A DNA stretch of 64,000 bases. It comes from an uncultured Gammaproteobacteria bacterium. Lineage in GTDB: Bacteria; Patescibacteriota; Microgenomatia; JAMCZE01. The translations under genes were made by a program, and so were the position numbers. Where the stretch lies: the NCBI GenBank assembly GCA_964576435.1, contig CAZNUP010000002.1:107302-171301 (forward strand), written 5' to 3'. How positions within the stretch are numbered: the stretch's first letter is position 1; each line of letters starts with the position of its first letter. Below are positions 1,857-58,581 of this stretch, in pieces. The notes under the pieces were generated by a model. It was not told the DNA's origin, searched no databases, and saw nothing but the letters and a program-made list of their open reading frames with translations.

Positions 1857-2642
1857 TTAGAAGGCAGAATCGTATAGTCCGTAGACAAGGTTGGCTCTAT
1901 TTTTCCAATTCTTAGTGAAGTTTTCTTCGCCTCTTGCGTAGCGGAAAGATCCCGTGTCAGTTTCTTTCATAATGTACCACCTACCGGTTCTATCTATATA
2001 GCCAAAGTAAGTGGGATTAGAGTCATCAATTTCTGAAATCTTATAGCCTAGTGTGGAGTCACTAACAGCAGTGGCTGCATTTTGGGTTGTTCCTTCAGGG
2101 AGGGCTCCAACATTTGCGTTTCCAAAGAAGGTGTTTTCTACCTTTTTAGTAAAGAGTGAGAGAAAAAAGACGCCAACTCCAACTGAACCAACAAGTTTGA
2201 TAAATGTTCTTCTGTCCATGTCGAAGTCTTTTTCGATGGTTGGTTCTTCTTTAGTTTCTGATACAACTTCTGGTGCTTTTTCTTCAGTTTTAGCCTCGAC
2301 AAAATCCTGATCAAGTTTTTTACCCCTTTTTGGGAGAACAAGTATCCAGAAATATGCAGCAAGGGGAATAAAAAGAGCTGCACTAATTAGTTCTGCTGTG
2401 TTTGTGGCTCCAAGAAACCCAGATATTGCCATGATATTTACAATAATGAAATCGTAGTAGAGAAGTAGCTTGTGACCCTTATTGGGACGAAAAACCACTA
2501 AGCCAAAATGAATGACGACTGGTAGGAAGAGGAGGAAGACGAGTGGATTACCAGTTTCAAGTGTTTGACTAGCAGCTCCAATAGTAATAAAGATGGAGAG
2601 TAGAGAAACGTAGAACAATAATATGATGCGGGCAATTCTCAT
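1857..2642 (-). CDS. Hypothetical membrane protein (N-terminal multi-TM, C-terminal soluble domain)
   Basis: ORF track. Hydrophobic N-terminal half. Confidence 0.4.
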   Translation of the reverse strand: MRIARIILLFYVSLLSIFITIGAASQTLETGNPLVFLLFLPVVIHFGLVVFRPNKGHKLLLYYDFIIVNIMAISGFLGATNTAELISAALFIPLAAYFWILVLPKRGKKLDQDFVEAKTEEKAPEVVSETKEEPTIEKDFDMDRRTFIKLVGSVGVGVFFLSLFTKKVENTFFGNANVGALPEGTTQNAATAVSDSTLGYKISEIDDSNPTYFGYIDRTGRWYIMKETDTGSFRYARGEENFTKNWKNRANLVYGLYDSAF

Positions 2643-2651
2643 TTATGGAAT

Positions 2652-3290
2652 TTAATATAAGACCTCTTTGACCATAGAACTTTCAATATAGCCTTCTTTG
2701 TTGTTTTCGTAGACTAGATACCAACTATCATCTTTGCTTAGGAATATATAAGGTTTGCCAAATTCTGCGGTTCCTACTACTTCTGAAGATGTGCTTTTCT
2801 CTTTATAGATGTTGACTGGAGTAGTTTCAGGTTTTTCTTTTAAAGTAATTGTATTTATCTTTTGATCGCTTTGACCTAAAATGGCCTTGGCTGGTACCGG
2901 TTGAACAGGTTTAGTGGACAATTTTTCTACTTCTTGTGTGAGATTGTCTAGTCTCTGAGTAACTCTATCACTCGAATATTCTGTTTGGATTGTCTTTACT
3001 TGTTTTTGGGATTTGTTTGAATAGGAAATCACGCCGGAATAGATGAGCGCACTAAGTGAACTAGCCAAAAGCGCCATTAAGAAAAATGGCACAGTTTTAG
3101 TCATGTTGTCTTTTGAAAAGTCAGCTTTAATGATTCCAGCGGCAGTTGCCCAGAAATATATGCCGCAAGGGATAAAAAGGAGAGCTACAAGAAAGCTTTC
3201 TGGTCTGGAACTTACAAAGATAGCCCAAATTAGAAGTGCTGTTGAAACAATTAATGTGTAATAAGCAAGAATGATCTGAAATTTCTTCAT
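2652..3290 (-). CDS. Hypothetical membrane protein
   Basis: ORF track. Several predicted TM helices. Confidence 0.4.
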   Translation of the reverse strand: MKKFQIILAYYTLIVSTALLIWAIFVSSRPESFLVALLFIPCGIYFWATAAGIIKADFSKDNMTKTVPFFLMALLASSLSALIYSGVISYSNKSQKQVKTIQTEYSSDRVTQRLDNLTQEVEKLSTKPVQPVPAKAILGQSDQKINTITLKEKPETTPVNIYKEKSTSSEVVGTAEFGKPYIFLSKDDSWYLVYENNKEGYIESSMVKEVLY

Positions 3291-3365
3291 ATGTGTCTAA
3301 CTATTCAGTATAGCAAAAATTATTGCTTGACAAGGATATAATTATGTTATAACATATGTACTAAC

Positions 3366-3608
3366 ATGATGTTAACAATTTTTAGAGCTGGGAATAGTGA
3401 TGTTGTTGCTTTAAATCCTATTTTGAAAGAGAAATACGGGTTTAAAACTGGTGTAAAAATTATTCAAGAAGATTCGGAAAACGGAATCTTAATTAGACCA
3501 CTTAAACCTAAAACAAAAAAAAAGGAAAGTAAGGTCAATAAAGATTTTAATAACTGGCTTAAGGGAGCTTTGGAAGAGGATAGCCTTTTATTAGATGAAC
3601 TAAAGTAA
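3366..3608 (+). CDS. Phd/AbrB(SpoVT)-like antitoxin partnered with Doc
   Basis: 80 aa. Stop is 2 nt before the doc start. Small swapped-hairpin-like N-terminus and a basic C-terminus. Confidence 0.5.
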   Translation: MMLTIFRAGNSDVVALNPILKEKYGFKTGVKIIQEDSENGILIRPLKPKTKKKESKVNKDFNNWLKGALEEDSLLLDELK

Positions 3609-36457: not shown

Positions 36458-38209
36458 ATGGATATTAAAACTGAGTGGAATTTGAATTTAATTTTGAAAC
36501 CGGATCAATTTGCTTCGGAAAAAGATAGAGTTATTTCTGAATCTTATAAATTCATTGATAAGTGGAAAAATAGAGAAGACTATTTAACTGACCCAAAAGT
36601 TTTAGCAGAAGCTTTGTTTGAATACCAAGAATGGGAAAGGGGAACAGGACTTGCTGGAAGACTGTGGTATTTTTGGAGCTTATCCAGTTCTTTAGATCAA
36701 ACTAATCCAGAAATTAAAGCCAAGCTTAATCAAGTAATTGAACTTTCAAATAAAATTCAAAATGATATTCAATTCTTCGAGCACAAGGTGTCTCGGATGA
36801 AACCAATTGAAGCGCCTGAACTTCTTCCTTATAAACACTATCTAGAGAGATTGTGGGCAAATGCTAAATACCTTCTTTCTGAACCAGAAGAAAAACTGAT
36901 GAATTTGAAAGCCGATTCTTCTTATGGAGCGTGGGAAAGAATGACATCGGGACTAATTTCCAAAGAAGAAAGAGAGGTCATGGGTCGGAAAAAGAATTTC
37001 TCAGAGATTTATAACATGATTAATGATCCTGATAAGAAAACTCGTGATAGTGCAGCTCTTGCTATGAATGAAGTTCTTTCTAGGTGGGTTGATGTCGGGG
37101 AGGCGGAAATGAATGCAATCCTAAATGATAAAAAAGTTAATGATGAACTGCGGGGAATGAAAAGACCTGATGAAGGACGACATGTGAGTGATGATGTAAG
37201 TTCTCCTATAGTTGATGCGTTAACAAAAACTGTTTCCGAAAATTTCAAACTACCAGCTAGATTTTTTGAACTTAAAGCAAAACTTTTAGGACTTCCTAAA
37301 CTCGAATACTATGAGCGGGCAGTGCCTTATGGGAAACTTGATAAGAAATATAGTCTGGATGAAGCTGTTAGTTTAGTGGCTGGGGTTTTTGAAAAACTGG
37401 GTCCAGAATTTAAAGAAATTTTTGAAAGACTTCTTTTAAATGGACAGGTTGATGTCTATCCAAAAAAGGGGAAGCGGGGAGGGGCATTTTGTTCACACAA
37501 CCTTGTTGTAGAACCAACATATGTGCTTATGAACTTTAATGACAAATTGGAATCAGTTTTAACACTTGCTCATGAATTTGGTCATGCAATTAATAATGAA
37601 CTAATGAGAGGGCAAAGTGCATTCTATTTCCATACAAGTTTAGCGACAGCTGAAGTAGCTAGTACTTTTTTCGAAGGATTTGTTCTTTCTGAACTTTTAA
37701 AAGAAGCTGATGATGAATTACGACTTGCCTTAATGGTCAAACAACTTGACGACGATATGGGAACAATCTTTAGACAAGTTGCGATGTACAACTTTGAAAA
37801 AGAACTCCACAATGCCTTTAAAGAAAAGGGGTATTTAGCAAAAGAAGAAATTGGAAAGATGTGGCTTGATAATGCGATTTCTTCAATGGGGCCATTTGTG
37901 AATGCAACGCCGGGATCTGAAAATTGGTGGCTATATGTTCCTCACATTAGAGACTTTTTTTATGTCTATTCTTATGCATCTGGTCAACTAATTTCTAAGG
38001 CAATGCAAAAGAAGGTTAAAGAGAAACCGGAATTTATATTGAAAGTAAAAGAATTTTTAGCATCAGGTACATCTAAGTCACCAAAAGATCTTTTTATGGA
38101 CATGGGAATAGATGTTTCGGATCAAAAGTTTTGGGAAGAGGGAATTATGGAGATAGAAAATGAACTAGGTCAGATTGAAGAGTTGGCCAAAAATATGGGA
38201 AAGATTTAA
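36458..38209 (+). CDS. pepF: Oligoendopeptidase F (M3B family metallopeptidase)
   Basis: HEFGHAINNE (HExxH) with a downstream Glu. About 580 aa, typical of PepF. Confidence 0.85.
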   Translation: MDIKTEWNLNLILKPDQFASEKDRVISESYKFIDKWKNREDYLTDPKVLAEALFEYQEWERGTGLAGRLWYFWSLSSSLDQTNPEIKAKLNQVIELSNKIQNDIQFFEHKVSRMKPIEAPELLPYKHYLERLWANAKYLLSEPEEKLMNLKADSSYGAWERMTSGLISKEEREVMGRKKNFSEIYNMINDPDKKTRDSAALAMNEVLSRWVDVGEAEMNAILNDKKVNDELRGMKRPDEGRHVSDDVSSPIVDALTKTVSENFKLPARFFELKAKLLGLPKLEYYERAVPYGKLDKKYSLDEAVSLVAGVFEKLGPEFKEIFERLLLNGQVDVYPKKGKRGGAFCSHNLVVEPTYVLMNFNDKLESVLTLAHEFGHAINNELMRGQSAFYFHTSLATAEVASTFFEGFVLSELLKEADDELRLALMVKQLDDDMGTIFRQVAMYNFEKELHNAFKEKGYLAKEEIGKMWLDNAISSMGPFVNATPGSENWWLYVPHIRDFFYVYSYASGQLISKAMQKKVKEKPEFILKVKEFLASGTSKSPKDLFMDMGIDVSDQKFWEEGIMEIENELGQIEELAKNMGKI

Positions 38210-42056: not shown

Positions 42057-42656
42057 TCAATGGATCAAAAAGGAAGTTATGTTGAAAATTATTGGATCAA
42101 TTATGCCAAAAATCAGAGGGCGAAAGAGATATATTGCACCAAAAACGAGAAGAAAACTAAATCTTTCGAGAGACAAATAGATTCTACTTATGTTGTCTGG
42201 TAAAACTCCCGCCAAGATTTTTGAACCATCAAGTGGAGGAATTGGTAAAAGGTTGAAAATAGCTAATGTTACATTTAAATAGATACCACTTGTTAGGATA
42301 TTTGTGACAATTGGTCCAAGATTTAGAAAGAGGAGGAGTGAGAAAAGTCCGGCAATTAAGAGATTGGTTGCTGGACCAGCTAATGAAACTATTGCCATAT
42401 CTCGTTTTGGATCCTTCAAATTAAACGGATCTACTGGCACTGGCTTAGCGGCTCCAAAGATAACGCCGGCATTTAAGATGAATAGAATTAGGGGAAGGGC
42501 GATAGTCATAATAGGGTCAATATGGGGGATAGGATTTAGGGTCAAACGTCCGTGGACTCTGGCTGTTGGGTCTCCTAATTTGTCGGCTACATAGCCATGA
42601 GCAATCTCGTGGAGGATGATTGAATAGATCAGAACTAGAAAATCGACAACAAACAT
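42057..42656 (-). CDS. Site-2 protease (M50) family zinc metalloprotease
   Basis: HEIAHGYVADKLGD (HExxH in a TM helix); multi-TM. Confidence 0.65.
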   Translation of the reverse strand: MFVVDFLVLIYSIILHEIAHGYVADKLGDPTARVHGRLTLNPIPHIDPIMTIALPLILFILNAGVIFGAAKPVPVDPFNLKDPKRDMAIVSLAGPATNLLIAGLFSLLLFLNLGPIVTNILTSGIYLNVTLAIFNLLPIPPLDGSKILAGVLPDNISRIYLSLERFSFLLVFGAIYLFRPLIFGIIDPIIFNITSFLIH

Positions 42657-43953: not shown

Positions 43954-44139
43954 ATGAGTGATCGTAATGAACAGTCAAAAGTTTCCATTGGGGACGTTTC
44001 ACCAGAATTGGCTAAAATATTAGCGAAATTTGCAGCTAGGGGTCAAACACCGGATGCTGATACAGTTGCAATGTTTTTAAAAGCTGCAGCACCAAGGGCG
44101 GTCGAGCTTCTAGATAAGAAGGGTAAAAAACAGGGTTAA
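43954..44139 (+). CDS. Small hypothetical protein (61 aa)
   Basis: ORF track only. Confidence 0.25.
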   Translation: MSDRNEQSKVSIGDVSPELAKILAKFAARGQTPDADTVAMFLKAAAPRAVELLDKKGKKQG

Positions 44140-44681
44140 ATTTCTACCTCATCCCACTCTTCTTCACTTTTGTTTTTCGTGATTTTATAGAGTTTTCCCT
44201 GCTGTTCTAGAATTCTTTCAATAAAAAGTTTACCGTCTAGATGGTCCATCTCGTGCTGAATCACAGTTGCTGCAAAGCCTTCAAATGTTTCTTCTTTTGT
44301 TTCTCCGGTTTCTGTTTGGTATTTTAGTTTCAAATTGGTCCATCTTTTAACTACACCGTAATAGTCGGGTTTTGACAAGCAACCTTCGAGAGGGGATTTC
44401 TTGGTTGTTTTATTTGGTTGAAGTTCTTCACTATGACTTAATATTTGAGGGTTAATAAAAACACGGACCTCGTCTGTTTTTTTTGTTCCAAATCTGGCCA
44501 CAAATATTTTCCATGGGAGATTTACTTGATTTGCAGCAAGACCAACCCCTTCTGGATCCTTTTGAGCAAGCATTGTTTCAATCATTTCTGAAACGATTTT
44601 TTTAAGTTTATCGTCAAAGAAATAGACATCTGTGGCGCTAGTTCTCAATATTTCATTTGGCGCTTGAACAATAGTGTACAT
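44136..44681 (-). CDS. def: Peptide deformylase
   Basis: GVGLAANQV, EGCLS and HEMDHLDG motifs. Confidence 0.85.
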   Translation of the reverse strand: MYTIVQAPNEILRTSATDVYFFDDKLKKIVSEMIETMLAQKDPEGVGLAANQVNLPWKIFVARFGTKKTDEVRVFINPQILSHSEELQPNKTTKKSPLEGCLSKPDYYGVVKRWTNLKLKYQTETGETKEETFEGFAATVIQHEMDHLDGKLFIERILEQQGKLYKITKNKSEEEWDEVEI

Positions 44682-48021: not shown

Positions 48022-48984
48022 TTATAGCCTATTGGTAACATAATCGCAGGAGTTTTTGAGATGAACTTGAGCAGTGCTTAAGACTTTGTTTCTTAAAAGG
48101 TTGATTTTTCCTACAGCTAGAGCTGTGTGTAAATAGGCGAGAATGTGTTCCTTTTTACCAATTGCACCATGTACTTCTAATGTAATTTTGTGGGAATAGT
48201 CTTTCTCGTATAAGAAATTAATGAAGTCAACAATTTTTGGATCGTTTACTTCCATCGCGTCATCTATGAAACCAATTTTATTGGTCGCAAGGTGTACATG
48301 AATTATTTGATCATAAATTGGCTTTATACTTTCCAAAATATCTAGGTCGGCACACATAAGCGATGCAGTGTCAAAACAAATACCAAATTTTTTCCTTGGA
48401 AGCAAGGCGCTCAGTGCCTGTGACATTATTTTGGGATTTATTAGCCAATCATAGGAGCCTTGATATTTTTGATAAAAAACACCCTTTTTTAATGATTTGT
48501 AGATATAAGGAGCATCGTGTTCAATTGCGATTGGGATTTTGTAATGACTTTCAAGTTTTGCAAATTGCTCTAGTTGTTTTTGTAAATTGTGGTGATCAAA
48601 AAACGTTATATGAGAGATAATGACTCTAGCTCCAATTTTTTTGGCAAAAATTAATGATTCTTCGGTCCGTTTAATTAAATCGTTAGAAAGTTCACGTTTT
48701 TTTAAAAGAAAAAAGTTAGCTGGGCCCTTTATTACCTTTGGTAGGGAAGCTGTGGGGATGAAAGTTTGCCAAGGTGAGTGGAGTACATATATTTTATCTG
48801 CCAAAACAGTGGAATTTATATCATTAAAATTTTGACCAAGAATGTAAAAATATTCGAAACCCTTAATTCCTAATTCATTCCTAGTATTTTCATAGATTTT
48901 GAAGTCCTCCAGATTAATTGTAGGAGGGAGAAAGCCAACTGGAAGGAGAGTGCGATCTAGAAACCAGGTTTGTTTTTTGCTCAT
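48022..48984 (-). CDS. TIM-barrel protein (xylose-isomerase-like / AP-endonuclease-2-like fold), uncertain
   Basis: Weak motif resemblance (HSPW..., IAIEHD...). Confidence 0.3.
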   Translation of the reverse strand: MSKKQTWFLDRTLLPVGFLPPTINLEDFKIYENTRNELGIKGFEYFYILGQNFNDINSTVLADKIYVLHSPWQTFIPTASLPKVIKGPANFFLLKKRELSNDLIKRTEESLIFAKKIGARVIISHITFFDHHNLQKQLEQFAKLESHYKIPIAIEHDAPYIYKSLKKGVFYQKYQGSYDWLINPKIMSQALSALLPRKKFGICFDTASLMCADLDILESIKPIYDQIIHVHLATNKIGFIDDAMEVNDPKIVDFINFLYEKDYSHKITLEVHGAIGKKEHILAYLHTALAVGKINLLRNKVLSTAQVHLKNSCDYVTNRL

Positions 48985-49013: not shown

Positions 49014-49946
49014 ATGATTAACAACTTACAGAAATTTTTCTTCAGGCATAATTATGTGGAAATTGTTGTCGGATTGATTTTTTTTGTTTTAATGACGATA
49101 TGGGCTGTCTTTTTTAACTTCCCGTATTTTTACAGTGTCTTTGTCGTTGGTCTTTTTTTAATTTTTGATGGTTTGGAGCACAGGCTTAAAAAGTTTTCTA
49201 ATTTAGATGGGGTAGTCAGCAAGTTTAATCCAAGAAGAATATTTGTCGTTCTGGTGTTTATTTTGGTTACAGATTTAATCGCCGGACAGATTGTTTTTAA
49301 AGTATGGTATTACCCCTATTACAATAGTATTTTTAATTGGATATTACTTTATCTCGTAATATATCCGATTGGAGGTCTTTCTCTTCTTGTAATGTTTAGG
49401 GTTTTTAAAATAATTATTGATAATCAGATAGAGGATCAAAGATTTTATATCGTCAAAAATCCCATGAGATGGGAAAAGATTTTAATTCATATAACTTTTT
49501 GGACTTTGCCTATTTCCATTGTTGTTCCCTTGCTACTTTTTGCCACTGGCAATTTGGAAATTGTTATGAGATCAAGGATTTTATATTCAATTTTGGCTTT
49601 GTTTCTTTTGTACCAATGGGTATTTTGTTTTGATATAGTAACTTTTGCTTATCATGGCAAAACTTTAATGTATGACTTTCTGAGGGGAGAAAAGAAGACT
49701 ATTATTGCGCTTGTTATTACTGGTCTTGTGGGGGCTTCGTTGCATGAAATTGTAAACACCTTTGCTTACGAATGGAGATATGTTCCCGAGAGATTACCGT
49801 TTAGCAGTGAGGGTATTTTGGGAGTTCCGTTTACAATTTTCTTGGGATGGATTTTTATGACAGCTGTTTGTGTGGCTGCTTATAGAATGTTTAAGGCAGT
49901 TTACAGTCATCACGTAAATAGAGCTCTGGAAAAAGAATATTTTTAA
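49014..49946 (+). CDS. Hypothetical polytopic membrane protein
   Basis: ORF track. Eight or more TM helices. Confidence 0.4.
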   Translation: MINNLQKFFFRHNYVEIVVGLIFFVLMTIWAVFFNFPYFYSVFVVGLFLIFDGLEHRLKKFSNLDGVVSKFNPRRIFVVLVFILVTDLIAGQIVFKVWYYPYYNSIFNWILLYLVIYPIGGLSLLVMFRVFKIIIDNQIEDQRFYIVKNPMRWEKILIHITFWTLPISIVVPLLLFATGNLEIVMRSRILYSILALFLLYQWVFCFDIVTFAYHGKTLMYDFLRGEKKTIIALVITGLVGASLHEIVNTFAYEWRYVPERLPFSSEGILGVPFTIFLGWIFMTAVCVAAYRMFKAVYSHHVNRALEKEYF

Positions 49947-52018
49947 AGAGTTTGTTTGTTTTCTTCAAGCCATTTTTTGGCACGATCGTCATTCCCAATT
50001 TTATTTAGCATGTATTCCATTTCTGCTCTTGCCTTTTCTTTATCTCCCTTTTGGTCATAATAGGTACCGAGTGCAAAATGGGCGTCAGCATAATCAGGTT
50101 TCATTTGAGTGACTCTTTTGAGAACTACGATGCCGCCATTTATGTCACCTGTTTGACCTAGGAGAAGGCCGTAGTTATAGTTAACTTTGGCGTCAGTTGG
50201 AGCAAGTTCGGCTGCTTTTTTAATTGAGTTTAAAGCTTCAAAAAGATATCTTTTGTCGATATTTGCTAGATTGTAAAAGAGTCTCGTCCTTGTTTTCCAG
50301 AACGAGAGAATACTTGGGGAAGAGCTTACTACTTCGTTACTGTTTTTAATTGCCTCATCTGTTAAGAATTTTGCTTCAGCTGAAGTTGAGGACTGCCCAA
50401 AATAGGCGAGAGCTAAGACAGATTCATTGTAGGCAAGTTCGTCACGATAGGTGGGTTCACCTGGACTAGTTTCTACAGCTTCTGCAAGGTATTTATAGCC
50501 TGCTTGGTATTGCTGAACACCGTCTAAATTTTTACCATATGCATAGGATTTATCTGCTTGCCACATGCTCCAAAGTTTTAGGATCCCAATTAGGGCAACT
50601 ACTAAAACTATGCTAATAAAAACCCAAGACCAGAGGGTTAATGGTTTGGTTGGGTGAGTTTTAATTTCTTCTTCTGGTTCTTTCAAAATTAAGGAGAAAG
50701 CTGGAATTAAGAAGAAGAATAGACCAATGATGACTACACTAAAGCCAAAGAAGTTAGTTACTAATATAGTAGTCCAGCCAGCATACAGAGCAATAGTTAA
50801 AACATCTTTTTTAGATTTCAAGAACCACCAGGTGTAGACCCCCAGAATTGATAGGTAGGCGAGTGTGCCGACTAGACCAGTGGTAGCCAAGATATTTAAA
50901 TATTCGTTGTGTGCCTTGTTGTATAAAAAGTCCCATTCTGAGACTAAATTGTGTGCAACTGGGCGATCTTTGTAATAGGAATAGGCAAATGTTTCCACTC
51001 CTGAACCAAAGACTGGATATCTTTGCCAAACTTTTAGGGCACCTTCCCAAACAATGTTTCTAATGTCACCAGATTCAGTAATAGAAATGGTGGGGTCAAC
51101 AGTTTTTGTAACTGGTTGAATTGATTTTTGGGAGGTTATTCTTTCAAGGGACCAATTTTCTGTTTGAGCAAAGGGGAGGCCAAATAGGACAGTTAGAACT
51201 AAAAGTGCTCCTAGGACTATTAGGAGTGGTTTAGTCAGTAATTTTTTAAAGTTTAAGTCTTTACGATTTGTGTAAATATAGAAACCGGCAAAAACACCTA
51301 AACCTAGCATTAAACCTAAAATGCCAGATCTAGATCTGGTAAAAAGAAGGGCGGCAAAAAAGAGCGGGGTAAATATTAAAAAGTATGGTTTTACCTTTTT
51401 GGCTTGTACTATGAGTCCTAATGATATGAGAATTAGCACATCTAGATAGGCTGCCATCCAATTTGGTTGGCCAAGAGTGGCAAAGACACGGGATTTAACA
51501 TCTTGGATCCAGCAATCAACTCCGCCACTGCCTGTTATGAACCAACAGGAAGGGGAACTACCAAAGTGTTCAAGAATTCCCCAGAGTGAAACAATTGTTC
51601 CCGATGCTAGGGAGACGTAGAAAATACGCATGATGTCTTGTTTTTTGAGATTGGAGACAACAGCAAAATAGAGAATTAAGTAGCAAGTTGTTGCTACTAG
51701 TCCTTCATGGAACCTCGAATAGTATCCCCAAATTGATGTTTGGACATCAATACTGAAGATGGTTGAAAGAATATGGGAACCTAGATAGAGAGCCAGTGGA
51801 ATTATTAGGTAAGTTTTTTGGAAGTTAATTTTGTGGTTTACTACAATTTTAATTAGCCAGGCTGCCCCTACAACTAAGGTGAGTGCATAAGTTAACATCA
51901 TCTTGTTGTATTCAAAAAGCTCAAAGGAACCTGAGAAGAAAATTAAAGGAACAAAGAAAAAAAGAAGATAGAAACTCCAACGAATTATGAGATCTGCCCA
52001 CTTAGCCATGTGTTTCAT
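49943..52018 (-). CDS. O-antigen-ligase-like (Wzy_C) membrane protein with C-terminal TPR repeats
   Basis: Polytopic N-terminal part with a TRSRSGILGL loop. C-terminal TPR-like repeats. Confidence 0.5.
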   Translation of the reverse strand: MKHMAKWADLIIRWSFYLLFFFVPLIFFSGSFELFEYNKMMLTYALTLVVGAAWLIKIVVNHKINFQKTYLIIPLALYLGSHILSTIFSIDVQTSIWGYYSRFHEGLVATTCYLILYFAVVSNLKKQDIMRIFYVSLASGTIVSLWGILEHFGSSPSCWFITGSGGVDCWIQDVKSRVFATLGQPNWMAAYLDVLILISLGLIVQAKKVKPYFLIFTPLFFAALLFTRSRSGILGLMLGLGVFAGFYIYTNRKDLNFKKLLTKPLLIVLGALLVLTVLFGLPFAQTENWSLERITSQKSIQPVTKTVDPTISITESGDIRNIVWEGALKVWQRYPVFGSGVETFAYSYYKDRPVAHNLVSEWDFLYNKAHNEYLNILATTGLVGTLAYLSILGVYTWWFLKSKKDVLTIALYAGWTTILVTNFFGFSVVIIGLFFFLIPAFSLILKEPEEEIKTHPTKPLTLWSWVFISIVLVVALIGILKLWSMWQADKSYAYGKNLDGVQQYQAGYKYLAEAVETSPGEPTYRDELAYNESVLALAYFGQSSTSAEAKFLTDEAIKNSNEVVSSSPSILSFWKTRTRLFYNLANIDKRYLFEALNSIKKAAELAPTDAKVNYNYGLLLGQTGDINGGIVVLKRVTQMKPDYADAHFALGTYYDQKGDKEKARAEMEYMLNKIGNDDRAKKWLEENKQTL

Positions 52019-52050: not shown

Positions 52051-53103
52051 ATGTTGGATTACCTTTTTGGCCTAGTCTCTCATGACATGGGAATTGATTT
52101 GGGCACAGCTAATACTCTTGTCTTTATAAAAGGCAAGGGGATTATGATCCGCGAACCTTCGGTTGTTGCGATGAATAAAAAAACTAAGGCAGTTGTTGCT
52201 GTTGGCGGGGAAGCTAAAAAAATGTACGGGAGAGCTCCTTTAAATCTTACAGTAGTTCGTCCGCTTCGTGATGGAGTTATTTCAGATTTTGATGCAACGG
52301 CTGCTATGCTTTCTCACTATGTTAAAGAAGTGCACCAAACACCAGGGATTATTCCTAAAATTCCAAAACCCAAAGTCGTTGTTGGAATTCCATCTGGGGT
52401 CACTGAAGTGGAAAGAAGAGCAGTTGCTGGAGCGGCTCTTGCGGCTGGAGCTCGGAAGGTTTACTTAATTGAAGAACCAATGGCTGCAGCAATTGGAATT
52501 GGGTTACCAATTGATGAATCTCATGGAAGTATTATTGTTGATATTGGCGGGGGCACAACTGAAATTGCAGTGGTGTCTTTGGGAGGGGTAGTTGTAAACA
52601 AATCGGTGCGAGTTGCGGGGGACGAACTGGATGAAGCAATTATTTCTTATGTCCGACTTAAATATAATGTTTTAATTGGTCAGCCAACAGCCGAAGAGGT
52701 CAAACTAACTATTGGGAATGCCCATCCATTTAATAATAATGAAGAAATGTACTCAGTTATTCGTGGACGGGATTTAGAGACAGGACTTCCACGGTCTTTA
52801 AAGATATCTTCGTCAGAAATTCGCGAAGCTTTGATGCCAGTTGTTCAGCAAATCATTGAAGCAATTAAAGACTTAATTGAAGAAACACCACCAGAACTTG
52901 TATCTGATATTTTAAATAGGGGAATTGCTCTTGCTGGAGGAGGCTCACTTCTTAAAAACATGGATAGAGCTGTCTCAGAAGCCACTAAAATGCCTGTGTG
53001 GGTAGCTGATGAACCACTTACTGCTGTTGTTCGGGGAACAGGGAAGGTTCTTTTGGATCCTAAGCTTCTTGATAGAGTTAAAGTGACTGGAGGTTTGAAA
53101 TAG
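52051..53103 (+). CDS. mreB: Rod-shape-determining protein MreB
   Basis: DMGIDLGTANTLVF...actin-fold ATPase...DEPLTAVVRGTG. Confidence 0.9.
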   Translation: MLDYLFGLVSHDMGIDLGTANTLVFIKGKGIMIREPSVVAMNKKTKAVVAVGGEAKKMYGRAPLNLTVVRPLRDGVISDFDATAAMLSHYVKEVHQTPGIIPKIPKPKVVVGIPSGVTEVERRAVAGAALAAGARKVYLIEEPMAAAIGIGLPIDESHGSIIVDIGGGTTEIAVVSLGGVVVNKSVRVAGDELDEAIISYVRLKYNVLIGQPTAEEVKLTIGNAHPFNNNEEMYSVIRGRDLETGLPRSLKISSSEIREALMPVVQQIIEAIKDLIEETPPELVSDILNRGIALAGGGSLLKNMDRAVSEATKMPVWVADEPLTAVVRGTGKVLLDPKLLDRVKVTGGLK

Positions 53104-54577
53104 GGATTAGGTTTGGTATTTCAGAAAAAAGCCTAACTTGAACTCTGGTTGAGATTTTTCCTTGTCTTTCACTAAACGACGTAATTTTTTCTCCTAATTC
53201 TTGCTCTGACAATTCTGGGTTGAAATAATTTATTGCATATCTTGAACTTATGTTTTCAGTCATTTTATTTATGCTTTCAAAATCCACAGAATGGAATTTG
53301 CCGTTTTTTAAGTATAAATGGTTTTTAGTAAACAATTGATTCCACAACCAATAATCAGCACTGCTATAAACACCTCCATAGGTTTTTATATCTTGTGGCT
53401 CGTTGTGAATATTTTTTAGTGATTCCAAGAGCTTTGCCATTACTGCATATGCTTCAGGATTTGGAATGCCCATTTTTCTTAAACATCTTGCGACAACCGA
53501 GACGGCTATAGCATCGGCCGCAATTTCTTCTATCGACTCATTTGTATTGGAAATAACTAGTCCCGTTTCTTCATCAAGTCCAGCCAAAAAATGTTTGATT
53601 TTTTTTGATCTGTCTCCCATCCCTAGATATATTAAATGCGCTGGCTCATGTGCAGCAAATAATAGCCAATTGGCGAGATCTAAGTAATTGGGATTAAGGG
53701 ATTTACCTACGGTAAAAGTGTCCAACCATATCTTAGATTGTTCCTCAAATCTTTTTCTGACTTGATTAATATTTACGATTGCAACCCGATCAGAACTTAT
53801 TCCTTGCGCACGAGAAACTATGCCGTAGCCTGCGGAACTTACTAGCATTTGCAAAATTATTTCTATTATTCTGCCGTTTGTATTGTCAATTGAATTTGAC
53901 TTTTCTCTTAATGTTGATCTAACCAATTCTTTAAGTGGAGCTAATTTTTTTATTTCTGGAGTAATTATTCCAAATAATATTTCTCCTATATCTTCATCTG
54001 TAAATCCAGATTTAACATATGGGTTTACTGTATCTTGGCTTGAAATATGGATCTGAAATGGGCTATCAATTTGTTTTCTTTCAACTTTTTGAAAATGTGA
54101 GAAAGTTTTTTTTCTCTCGTCATGATTTTTGGAACAAATATAAGCTCTTAAAGCATTTGAAATGTGGTGTAAACTAAGGCGGTCTTCTGATTGTTCAACT
54201 TGATTTGCTTGCAATGACTCTTCAATTGCTTCACTAATTAATAAAGACCTGTGTTTAAATTCTACTTGTACACTCTTAGGAGGATGAGTCGGTCCAAAAA
54301 GCATGGCCGATTTTTGGTATAAGACATTTTGATTAATTGCTTGTGTGGTTATTGTTGCGATGTCAAGAAAATTCGTTACGATTCTTGGTGATAGTCCCGA
54401 CTCCGTAATCCATGTTTCCCTTGTAGTTTTTGAGGTCAAATTTTCAATAGCTTGATCACTAGATAATTTGAGAATTTCTAGCCAATGTAACTTATCTCTA
54501 GTTGTGCCAGTTTCTAAATATTGATATATGCCAGCATTGCCAGAGGAAATTTCTTTAAATTCAGATGATGAAATCAT
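53078..54577 (-). CDS. Hypothetical 499-aa protein with an HExxH motif, encoded antisense between mreB and mreC
   Basis: AAHEPAHLIYLGMGD contains HEPAH. No signal peptide seen. Confidence 0.4.
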   Translation of the reverse strand: MISSSEFKEISSGNAGIYQYLETGTTRDKLHWLEILKLSSDQAIENLTSKTTRETWITESGLSPRIVTNFLDIATITTQAINQNVLYQKSAMLFGPTHPPKSVQVEFKHRSLLISEAIEESLQANQVEQSEDRLSLHHISNALRAYICSKNHDERKKTFSHFQKVERKQIDSPFQIHISSQDTVNPYVKSGFTDEDIGEILFGIITPEIKKLAPLKELVRSTLREKSNSIDNTNGRIIEIILQMLVSSAGYGIVSRAQGISSDRVAIVNINQVRKRFEEQSKIWLDTFTVGKSLNPNYLDLANWLLFAAHEPAHLIYLGMGDRSKKIKHFLAGLDEETGLVISNTNESIEEIAADAIAVSVVARCLRKMGIPNPEAYAVMAKLLESLKNIHNEPQDIKTYGGVYSSADYWLWNQLFTKNHLYLKNGKFHSVDFESINKMTENISSRYAINYFNPELSEQELGEKITSFSERQGKISTRVQVRLFSEIPNLIPISNLQSL

Positions 54578-54640
54578 AGAATTTGGATTTTAACATCTCT
54601 TGAATTTGAGTAGTGGAAATGTATACTGTTTCATTACAGT

Positions 54641-55420
54641 ATGGAGAAGGTTGGAATTAGGGTTTTTTTGGTATTCATTTTTTTAAGTCTCCTTTTTATG
54701 TTCTTAGATTCCCGGGGAAGTTTAGTGTTCTTAAGGAATGGTTCTAGTTATATTATTAGTCCTTTTGCGTCATTTTCTTCAAATGGAAGAACAGCTTTTA
54801 ATGAGACATTTTCATTTTTAACATTTTGGAAAAGTGGAGAGTCAAGAATCAGAAATTTGGAACAAATTAATTTGGAACTTCTTGTCAAAGCCGGAAGGAC
54901 TGATGCTCTTGAAAGAGAAAATAAGATACTTAGGCAACAACTGGGTGTGACTAGTTTAGTTGAGCACAAAATGTTGCCTGTTAGAGTTCTTGGGAGAGGG
55001 AGATTTTTGATTGTTGGGGCCGGGTCAAATGAAGGAGTTAAAGTTAATCAAAATGTGGTTTATAAAAATGGACTAGTTGGAAAGGTTAGTAAAGTTACTT
55101 CTAAACTTACTTATGTTTTACTGCCAACAGATCCAGATTCGAAGATTCCAGTTGTGGTTGGTCCTTCTGAAATGGTTCGAGGAATTGTTATTGGTCAATT
55201 TAATTCTTCGATTATATTAGATCAGATTGTTCAAACCGAGCATATCTCGTCAAATGAGTCGATTTTTACATCAGGGGAAAGTGAAGACTATTTGCAAGGA
55301 CTGTTAATTGGAAAAGTCGGAAAAACAATTTCGCAAGAAACTGATCTTTTTAAGAAGACGTCAGTTGTTCCAGTTTTTGATTACAACAAATTAACAACTG
55401 TTTTTATTGTTTTAGATTAA
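54641..55420 (+). CDS. mreC: Rod-shape-determining protein MreC
   Basis: N-terminal TM, coiled coil, then beta-rich LPVRVLGRG...GLVGKVSKVT...PTDPDSKIPVVV. Confidence 0.7.
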   Translation: MEKVGIRVFLVFIFLSLLFMFLDSRGSLVFLRNGSSYIISPFASFSSNGRTAFNETFSFLTFWKSGESRIRNLEQINLELLVKAGRTDALERENKILRQQLGVTSLVEHKMLPVRVLGRGRFLIVGAGSNEGVKVNQNVVYKNGLVGKVSKVTSKLTYVLLPTDPDSKIPVVVGPSEMVRGIVIGQFNSSIILDQIVQTEHISSNESIFTSGESEDYLQGLLIGKVGKTISQETDLFKKTSVVPVFDYNKLTTVFIVLD

Positions 55421-57503: not shown

Positions 57504-58126
57504 TGCAAAGTATTAAAACAATTAAAAGAGGAGACAAAGATTATCCAGAATCTTTAGAAAATATCTCTGATCCGCCAGAGATTTTATATTATTTGGGAAA
57601 TTTAAGTATACTTGGCAAAAATATTGGAGTTGTCGGAACAAGGCAAATTACAAAGTTTGGACAAGAGGTAACGGAAAAAATAACAAAGGAACTTGTTGAA
57701 GAGGGATTTGTGATTGTCTCAGGGATGGCGCTTGGTGTGGATGCGGTTGCTCATTGGACCGCGCTTAAGAATGGTGGAAAAACTGTGGCAGTACTTGGTG
57801 CTGGGGTCGATGTTATATATCCACGGGAAAATACCCACTTATATAATAGTATCCTTGAAGCCGGTGGGCTTATTATTTCTGAAGTGGCTCCCGGAAGAAC
57901 GGTTCAAAAAGAAATGTTTCCAGCAAGGAATAGAATAATTTCTGGGTTATCAGAAGCTGTTGTCGTTACAGAAGCTGCTTTAAAATCCGGAAGTTTAATT
58001 ACAGCGAGACTTGCTCTAGAACAAGGGAGAGAGGTGTTTGCAGTTCCTGGTTCACCTGGACCTGACTATTTGATTGAACAAGGTGCCAGTTTGATTCTAA
58101 AATCTGAAGATAAAATTTCTTTTTAA
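57500..58126 (+). CDS. dprA: DNA-processing protein DprA (Rossmann domain only)
   Basis: IGVVGTRQITKFG...VSGMALGVDAVAH...VLGAGVD..YPREN...VTEAALKSGSLITAR. Confidence 0.8.
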   Translation: MMQSIKTIKRGDKDYPESLENISDPPEILYYLGNLSILGKNIGVVGTRQITKFGQEVTEKITKELVEEGFVIVSGMALGVDAVAHWTALKNGGKTVAVLGAGVDVIYPRENTHLYNSILEAGGLIISEVAPGRTVQKEMFPARNRIISGLSEAVVVTEAALKSGSLITARLALEQGREVFAVPGSPGPDYLIEQGASLILKSEDKISF

Positions 58127-58581
58127 AAAAATAAATTACCCAGACTAGACAGTACTATTATTGCAGTTAGAGCTTCTAGCCTATTATTGTCATCTATAAA
58201 CTGGAACTCCGAGGCACTGATGCTCTTTAGTTTTGCAAGCTCATAGACTGCTAATCCACATTTTTGTTTTCCGTGCGTTGAATGCTCGTCAACATATCTT
58301 TCCACTAAGTAATCTGTCCCTGCAACTAGCTTTTGTACATTAGGATTATATTCACAACAGAATATGGAATTAGGTTCAAGTTCTGGGTTTCGTCTGGTAG
58401 CTATTCTATAGGTTCCTGTCTTTTTTAAGTAATCTAAATTGCGAATGGGAAACGCACTAAAAACATGACTCCCTTTAAGTAGAGATGGGTTTATTTGTTG
58501 GATGTTTTTAATCAGTAAATCGTCTGGGTCTCCATGTTGGTATTTGTCGACGTTTCTAAAACTTATTTCATACTCTTGCAT
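58123..58581 (-). CDS. Hypothetical protein (152 aa)
   Basis: ORF track. Confidence 0.3.
   Translation of the reverse strand: MQEYEISFRNVDKYQHGDPDDLLIKNIQQINPSLLKGSHVFSAFPIRNLDYLKKTGTYRIATRRNPELEPNSIFCCEYNPNVQKLVAGTDYLVERYVDEHSTHGKQKCGLAVYELAKLKSISASEFQFIDDNNRLEALTAIIVLSSLGNLFF

Follow-up and report, generated by a model that had tools for sequence, protein, structure and literature searches.

A fast-evolving orphan protein with conserved HExxH and ExxxD motifs, encoded between mreB and mreC in Microgenomates-like Patescibacteria

Why does a long gene without a name lie on the opposite strand between mreB and mreC, and what might its product do? The question is raised by a stretch of 64,000 nucleotides (positions 107,302 to 171,301 of contig CAZNUP010000002.1, assembly GCA_964576435.1; hereafter the window), in which an open reading frame (ORF) for a 499-residue protein, here called P0001, separates mreB from mreC. 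A preliminary description of the same DNA had noted an HExxH motif in this protein and had proposed either a lineage-specific morphogenesis-associated factor or a novel metallopeptidase. Our analysis leads to a tentative answer, to which we give a probability of about 0.45: P0001 may be a soluble zinc metallohydrolase of the gluzincin type, belonging to a new and fast-evolving family with no detectable kinship to the catalogued peptidase families. The position of the gene is easier to account for. It is a lineage-restricted accessory gene of a small clade of Microgenomates-like Patescibacteria, and the mreB–mreC junction in which it lies is a variable slot, with the 499-residue gene as one of several unrelated occupants.

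The conserved HExxH and ExxxD motifs

P0001 was compared exhaustively by phmmer with 1.84 billion cluster representatives, which between them cover ~15 billion proteins, and a single relative emerged: P0002, a protein of 533 residues that aligns with residues 19–483 of P0001 at 27% identity (E=1.8e-45). Word-index homology searches with P0001, P0002 and their alignment returned the queries themselves and nothing else, and nothing was found when metagenome and viral contigs were scanned with patterns of the family or when phages and plasmids were searched by tblastn. Two Logan contigs that carry P0001 (L001 and L002) are 100% identical to the window in their DNA; they come from one and the same strain and contribute no further variation. 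All statements on conservation within the family made below rest on the two sequences P0001 and P0002. The gene for P0002, on an NCBI contig of GCA_034680565.1 (locus L003), shares both slot and orientation with the 499-residue gene, so that a second genome provides the conservation of the ORF and of its synteny that the preliminary description had asked to be checked.

The HExxH motif noted in the preliminary description is indeed present. The ORF, the sequence of which includes LLFAAHEPAHLIYLGMGD, encodes HEPAH in P0001, and this aligns with HELGH at residues 353–357 of P0002. A conserved helix-like stretch, P-x-x-LDLAN-x-x-L, precedes the motif. Downstream, the segment IEEIAAD of P0001 aligns with LEEILVD of P0002 (E395-ILV-D399), and the distance from the second histidine to the glutamate of this ExxxD motif is 37 residues in P0001 (H314 to E351) and 38 in P0002. 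Both HExxH and the downstream glutamate, conservation of which had been named as the check on a metallopeptidase, are thus invariant at an overall identity of 27%. The thermolysin-like proteinases, or gluzincins, are defined by HEXXH together with an EXXXD motif that follows 20–60 residues downstream, the glutamate of ExxxD being the third zinc ligand; thermolysin has a spacing of 20, neprilysin one of 59 and BlaR1/MecR1 one of 37 (PMC3356374). At the level of sequence, P0001 and P0002 both show this arrangement, with ExxxD at 20–60 residues from the second histidine and, as in zincins generally, an HExxH that is conserved between homologs.

How often such a pattern would arise by chance was estimated from 2,000,000 shuffles of the columns of the P0001/P0002 alignment. 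A conserved HExxH appeared in 4.5e-4 of the shuffles, and a conserved HExxH followed 20–60 residues downstream by a conserved ExxxD in 5.5e-6. Only four of the 14 histidines are conserved between the two proteins, two of them in HExxH. Conservation peaks in four places, one of them the block around HExxH (residues 291–315, 40% identity); other conserved blocks have no catalytic-looking residues, namely KNHxxRKxTFSxF at 141–165 (44%) and MAKLLxSL...YG at 381–405 (40%). Downstream of the motifs, Y400, Y404 and H429 are also conserved and could be candidate transition-state stabilisers.

If P0001 works as a gluzincin, the ligands of Zn2+ would be His310, His314 and Glu351, the zinc-bound water would be activated by Glu311 as the general base, and Asp355 would form a hydrogen bond with a ligand histidine, as in thermolysin-like enzymes. 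Cytoplasmic peptides or proteins would be the likely substrates. The preliminary description had reported no signal peptide, and this is borne out: none was found in P0001, nor was a conserved transmembrane segment, as the maximum Kyte–Doolittle value for a 19-residue window in P0001 is 1.62 and P0002 is polar over the segment aligned with it. P0001 is predicted to be a soluble, mostly alpha-helical and presumably cytoplasmic protein.

The case for and against a zinc hydrolase

A number of results weigh against the gluzincin reading. Searches of Pfam, NCBIfam, PHROGs and PADLOC with P0001 and P0002 gave no match, and no peptidase was matched at E<=1–10 by the full-length proteins or, in Pfam searches at E<=10, by motif-containing sub-domains of 205 and 206 residues. 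In the PDB, no zincin was recovered by phmmer with full-length P0001, by a profile search with the two-sequence alignment (E<=10) or by phmmer with the 167-residue motif core of each protein (E<=10); the matches that the sub-domains did give, to thioredoxin reductase and to designed helical repeats, were set aside as noise. No similarity was therefore seen to models of the zincin families (M1, M2, M3, M4, M13, M32, M48, M56, M78 and others) or to solved zincin structures. The judgement in the preliminary description that the protein could not be assigned by eye to a known peptidase family agrees with the Pfam, NCBIfam and PDB searches. An hhalign comparison with oligoendopeptidase F (PepF), an M3B peptidase encoded elsewhere in the window, aligned only the HExxH helix, over 33 columns and with a probability of 1.8%.

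The surroundings of the motif also count against it. As a regular expression, PROSITE pattern PS00142 matches neither FAAHEPAHLI of P0001 nor YSGHELGHPD of P0002, a failure shared by many true zincins. A proline is found inside the motif of P0001 (x1 of HEPAH) and directly after that of P0002 (HELGHP), and a proline in or beside HExxH is unusual for a continuous active-site helix. Evolution as rapid as that described below is unusual for a housekeeping enzyme, and the conservation of the motifs is known from a comparison of only two sequences.

The zincin fold consists of an N-terminal subdomain with a mixed beta-sheet of >=3 strands and the active-site helix, and a C-terminal subdomain with the third ligand (PMC3890501). 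AlphaFold2 models of P0001 had a mean predicted local distance difference test score (pLDDT) of 34.1 from the single sequence and 33.9 from the two-sequence alignment, with a predicted template modelling score of ~0.2, and are too poor to interpret. In these low-confidence models (pLDDT ~34), E351–D355 falls inside a helix at 349–368 and the stretch leading up to H310 is helical, the arrangement that an active-site helix and a ‘glutamate helix’ would be expected to give. There is no beta-sheet upstream of HExxH, a further point against a zincin, although the models are of too poor a quality for this to count either way.

Much of this would also fit with P0001 being an accessory protein that is not a hydrolase. 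HExxH and ExxxD would then be kept for structural or other non-catalytic reasons, for example as a metal or ligand site or as a contact between helices if the protein is an all-alpha scaffold or regulator, and the likeness to gluzincins would be convergent or coincidental. The absence of zincin-family homology at any threshold tried, the failure of the PROSITE pattern with a proline in or beside the motif, and the all-alpha appearance of the low-confidence models speak for such a protein, as does the finding that the blocks at 141–165 and 381–405 are just as well conserved as the HExxH block. It is less easily reconciled with the joint conservation of five signature residues at canonical spacing, for which the chance estimate is 5.5e-6, and with the fit of this spacing to the gluzincin definition (PMC3356374). 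We consider a non-hydrolase the main rival to the gluzincin reading, a real, if somewhat doubtful, possibility.

For the gluzincin reading itself, confidence is limited because the context of the motif is atypical. We infer metal binding, catalysis and cytoplasmic location for the protein, and promoter function for the DNA upstream of its gene, from sequence features. The suggestion of a novel metallopeptidase in the preliminary description thus survives and is somewhat strengthened by the conserved HExxH and ExxxD, and it is held back by the want of any profile match and by the unusual motif context. If it is true, P0001 and P0002 would form a new peptidase family, a branch of clan MA beyond the reach of sequence profiles, in which a catalytic signature has been kept through near-saturating sequence divergence. 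It would also add one enzymatic activity to Patescibacteria, in which the known proteolytic machinery is very limited. So far the family is confined to two uncultured members of the Patescibacteria, a group with small genomes rich in unassigned genes. Its importance is modest, orphan proteins being commonplace in genomes of the Candidate Phyla Radiation (CPR).

A genuine gene in a variable slot

The 499-residue ORF is a genuine gene and looks like one that is expressed. In its own frame the codon-usage log-odds is +0.187, inside the range of 0.10–0.40 spanned by the genes of the window, and the remaining five frames of the region give values of -0.20 to -0.82. A log-odds in the gene range, together with a full-length homolog encoded by another genome, shows that the ORF is not a product of chance. 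That it has no database annotation, name or Pfam domain might have suggested a spurious ORF in an AT-rich intergenic or degenerate region; this is effectively refuted by a frame-specific coding signal like that of bona fide genes and by a 533-residue homolog that aligns over ~465 residues, with the frame and N-terminus kept despite strongly diverged DNA. The N-termini of P0001 and P0002 align from Met1, with M1, F7, K8 and I10 invariant, which supports the annotated start. The GC content at third codon positions (GC3) is slightly lower in the gene than on average in the window (0.25 versus 0.31), and in codon usage the gene does not stand out from the genome.

The positions of the gene, its motifs and its neighbours are collected in Table 1. 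As the preliminary description stated, the ORF lies between mreB and mreC on the opposite strand. It was also described as antisense within the mre block, and this holds as regards the strand; the gene fills its own 1.5 kb between mreB and mreC and is antisense only to the 3' end of mreB, with which it overlaps by 26 nucleotides. In L003 the genes for MreB and P0002 do not overlap and are separated by a gap of eight nucleotides, and a C-terminal tail of ~10 residues in P0001 has no counterpart in P0002 in the pairwise alignment. The overlap with mreB is therefore a lineage-specific, unconstrained extension.

Table 1. Features of the window discussed in the text, with positions counted from its first nucleotide
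Feature	Positions	Strand	Basis
M3B oligoendopeptidase F (PepF), HEFGH	36458..38209	plus	PF01432
mreB	52051..53103	plus	PF06723, E=4e-134
26-nt overlap of mreB and the 499-residue gene, convergent at their 3' ends	53078..53103		ORF coordinates
Orphan gene, 499 residues (P0001)	53078..54577	minus	ATG-initiated ORF, coding statistics, homolog P0002
EIAAD, residues 351–355, candidate gluzincin ExxxD with Glu as putative third zinc ligand	53513..53527	minus	invariant E350, E351, I352, D355
HEPAH, residues 310–314, candidate zinc-binding/catalytic HExxH	53636..53650	minus	invariant H310, E311, H314
Divergent intergenic region, 63 bp	54578..54640		two back-to-back promoter-like elements
mreC	54641..55420	plus	PF04085, E=2e-27

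Beyond mreC the window continues with a 111-residue MreD-like ORF, PBP2 (PBP_dimer and Transpeptidase domains), dprA and topA. The order in L003 is a Wzy_C/TPR gene, mreB, P0002 (on the opposite strand), mreC, mreD, PBP2, dprA, topA and pyrG. Scans anchored on MreB in GTDB species representatives and JGI metagenomes gave 58 further loci (L004–L061), with MreB 62–86% identical to that of the window; where these carry an informative label, it reads Candidatus Amesbacteria, Candidatus Pacebacteria or Patescibacteria, which places the window in Microgenomates-like Patescibacteria. A relative of P0001 is encoded at none of the 58, by either BLASTP or hmmsearch --max with the two-sequence profile, and no diverged HExxH ORF was found in the enlarged gaps downstream of mreB in L004, L007, L015, L018, L021, L026, L034, L042 and L046.

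The preliminary description took the mreB–mreC junction to be normally contiguous. This is so in L005, L006, L014, L016 and L022, where the two genes range from a 4-nucleotide overlap to a 64-nucleotide gap; elsewhere unrelated genes intervene. In L018, L020 and L007, the closest relatives without the 499-residue gene (MreB 76–86% identical), the junction holds a PaaX-like gene on the mre strand (PF20803, E=3e-22, with weaker matches to PaaX_C and Cas2), at L018:7299–8222 (+) and L007:1903–2685 (+) and in the same arrangement in L020. A 165-residue RNaseH-like gene (PF04308, E=3e-46) fills the gap at L015:4172–4669 (+), and L034 has a 218-residue membrane ORF there. A cytidylyltransferase-like ORF follows mreB in L004, and L046 has a 0.9-kb gap downstream of mreB with no convincing ORF. 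The PaaX-like and RNaseH-like genes share with the 499-residue gene the point of insertion downstream of mreB and a home in Microgenomates-like genomes; they differ from it in being unrelated in sequence, encoded on the mre strand, shorter and members of known Pfam families. The 499-residue gene is the sole opposite-strand occupant among those found. Because the junction is contiguous in some relatives and occupied by unrelated genes in others, it is a variable slot in the Microgenomates-like lineage, and this explains the odd position of the 499-residue gene. The gene would have been inserted into this slot on the opposite strand, parting mreC, mreD and PBP2 from mreB and leaving mreC with its own conserved promoter-like element, and its adjacency to the mre genes would be incidental. 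An origin in a mobile element was considered and rejected, since the gene is not flanked by meaningful direct or inverted repeats and its codon usage is typical; mobility genes are likewise absent from its flanks.

Several other features of these loci were noted. In many Amesbacteria-like loci (L008–L013, L019, L024–L033, L035–L039, L041, L044, L045, L047, L049 and L050) PBP2 comes straight after mreB and no MreC is detectable by BLAST at E<=1e-3, so that MreC there has been either lost or relocated or has diverged beyond recognition. Between mreB and PBP2, L026 and L058 have a 221-residue methyltransferase-looking ORF and L042 a 254-residue membrane ORF. A gene for a ~690-residue O-antigen-ligase-like (Wzy_C) protein with C-terminal TPR repeats, at 49943–52018 (-) in the window, divergently adjoins mreB, and this wzy–mreB pairing recurs in nearly all of the loci L003–L061, being much more conserved than the pairing of mreB with mreC. 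Both mreB and PBP2 are split into two overlapping ORFs in L017/L052 (2490–3550 and 4321–5737), as is mreB in L016 (5550–6612); frameshifts, pseudogenes or assembly errors may lie behind these, and the split in L018 comes from a masked stretch of N. Several metagenome-assembled genome records titled ‘uncultured Gammaproteobacteria bacterium’ (among L004–L009, L013, L014, L016 and L018) carry wzy–mreB–(mreC)–pbp2 loci of the Microgenomates type, with MreB 64–83% identical to that of the window, and their organism labels look wrong.

The 499-residue gene has evolved much faster than the genes around it. Between the window and L003 the identity is 91% for MreB, 85% for PyrG, 80% for TopA, 71% for PBP2, 69% for the Wzy-like protein, 68% for DprA, 63% for MreC and 53% for MreD, compared with 27% for P0001 and P0002; over nine neighbouring genes the values span 53–91%. 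With a simple Poisson correction, substitutions per site in P0001 are ~2–14 times those of its neighbours. The frame and length have been kept despite this strong acceleration, so that purifying selection probably acts at the level of the protein.

The 63-bp spacer between the 499-residue gene and mreC contains promoter-like elements on both strands. Towards mreC there is TTGAAT (54600–54605), 16 nucleotides and TATACT (54622–54627), located 13 nucleotides before the ATG; this element was reported by a consensus scan of the window and by itself is not above chance. On the minus strand TGTTAAAAT is found at 54595..54587, nine nucleotides before the ATG of the 499-residue gene. The counterparts in L003 are TTGAAA-16-TATACT, 11 nucleotides before mreC, and TGCTAGAAT, seven nucleotides before the ATG of P0002. 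The spacer, 63–68 bp in length, has largely diverged between the window and L003 (9933–10000, reverse complement) except, as judged by eye, for these two elements. The conserved TTGAA(T/A)-16-TATACT suggests an independent promoter for mreC with a very short leader. The orphan-gene element has the consensus TGnTA(A/G)AAT, an extended -10-like box placed 7–9 nucleotides before the ATG in both genomes, which suggests that the transcript of the orphan gene is leaderless or nearly so.

This arrangement bears on the other suggestion of the preliminary description, a morphogenesis factor, for which one might imagine a protease or regulator of MreB or MreC that is coupled to the elongasome and co-regulated with mreC through the 63-bp region. 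The slot and orientation are the same in both genomes that have the gene, and the gene is divergent to mreC, each strand having its conserved promoter-like box. With MreB 91% identical, however, the two genomes are closely related, and shared synteny is what one would expect by default. None of the 58 related loci, which keep mreB and often mreC and PBP2, has the gene, and unrelated genes fill the same slot in other relatives. Being on the opposite strand, the gene is not co-transcribed with the mre genes, and a rate several-fold above that of MreB, MreC, MreD and PBP2 argues against tight physical co-evolution. A morphogenetic role is thus distinctly unlikely, and the earlier suggestion of one is not upheld. 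More unlikely again is the specific proposal that the family consists of cytoplasmic zinc proteases of a small CPR clade which share a bidirectional promoter region with mreC and tune the elongasome (MreB/MreC/PBP2) by proteolysis; if true, episymbiotic bacteria would have in it a regulator of cell shape that is specific to one lineage and evolves rapidly. The lesson for annotation is that a morphogenetic role should not be assigned by position at the mreB–mreC junction of Microgenomates-like genomes.

Rapid divergence and a patchy distribution, in a variable locus, are also what might be expected of a gene involved in conflict, such as a protease for phage defence or abortive infection, a toxin, or an effector directed against the host of an episymbiont. 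The extreme divergence of P0001 relative to its neighbours, a family of only two members among ~15 billion proteins and the slightly low GC3 point in this direction. Neither P0001 nor P0002 matches PADLOC or PHROG families, however; no relative is present in the collections of phages, plasmids and viral contigs searched; no flanking repeats, mobility genes, partner genes or secretion signal were found; and the codon usage is typical of the genome. A conflict gene therefore seems improbable.

Other lineage-specific genes were seen near this locus. A second opposite-strand orphan, a 152-residue ORF at 58123–58581 (-) between dprA and topA, has no Pfam or PADLOC match and no counterpart in L003, where other small ORFs take its place at the dprA–topA junction; it resembles the 499-residue gene in being a lineage-specific gene set into a conserved backbone. 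At 49014–49946 (+), between the Wzy_C/TPR gene and a 320-residue gene at 48022–48984, is a 310-residue multi-pass membrane ORF of no Pfam family, which is missing from L003, its two flanking genes being adjacent there. Conversely, L003 has at 2108–3469 (-) a 453-residue gene with no Pfam match between pyrG and topA, another lineage-specific insertion; the window has no counterpart, and pyrG directly follows topA.

Comparison with known zinc proteases

One comparison is with PepF, which is encoded in the same window. PepF (583 residues) and P0001 are of a similar size class, all-alpha and cytoplasmic (in P0001 as predicted), with HExxH located ~62–64% along the chain, and their local contexts are alike, both having P-x-Y...D....LL-x-AHExxH and a glutamate helix of the form E-[VI]-A-[SA]. 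The spacing from histidine to glutamate differs: the M3B oligoendopeptidases F have the glutamate ~23–25 residues beyond HExxH, with 23 in the PepF of the window, and P0001 has a spacing of 37. Homology between the two was rejected on this difference, the absence of a PF01432 match to P0001 and the low hhalign probability given above. The other HExxH proteins of the window are ordinary ones: a short M50-family protein with HEIAH near its N-terminus, at 42057–42656 (-), and peptide deformylase (HEMDH), at 44136–44681 (-).

With BlaR1/MecR1 of family M56, P0001 has in common a single trait, the spacing of 37 residues from the second histidine to the glutamate, which BlaR1 shows as well (PMC3356374). 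The catalytic sites of M56 and of M48 (HtpX/Ste24) lie between transmembrane helices, in M56 within a cytoplasmic loop, whereas P0001 has no transmembrane segment; BlaR1 bears a C-terminal penicillin-sensor domain, and P0001 has no PF05569, M48 or transpeptidase match.

The gluzincins of MEROPS clan MA(E), exemplified by thermolysin (M4) and neprilysin (M13), can be compared with P0001 through their sequence motifs. Unlike them, P0001 has no detectable similarity in sequence or profile, has a proline in or beside HExxH and does not match the PROSITE pattern, and, unlike the M4 and M13 enzymes, it is probably cytoplasmic and has neither a pro-peptide nor a signal peptide. It is like the gluzincins in placing the glutamate motif in a predicted helix, according to the low-confidence models, and in combining HExxH with an ExxxD inside the range of 20–60 residues (PMC3356374).

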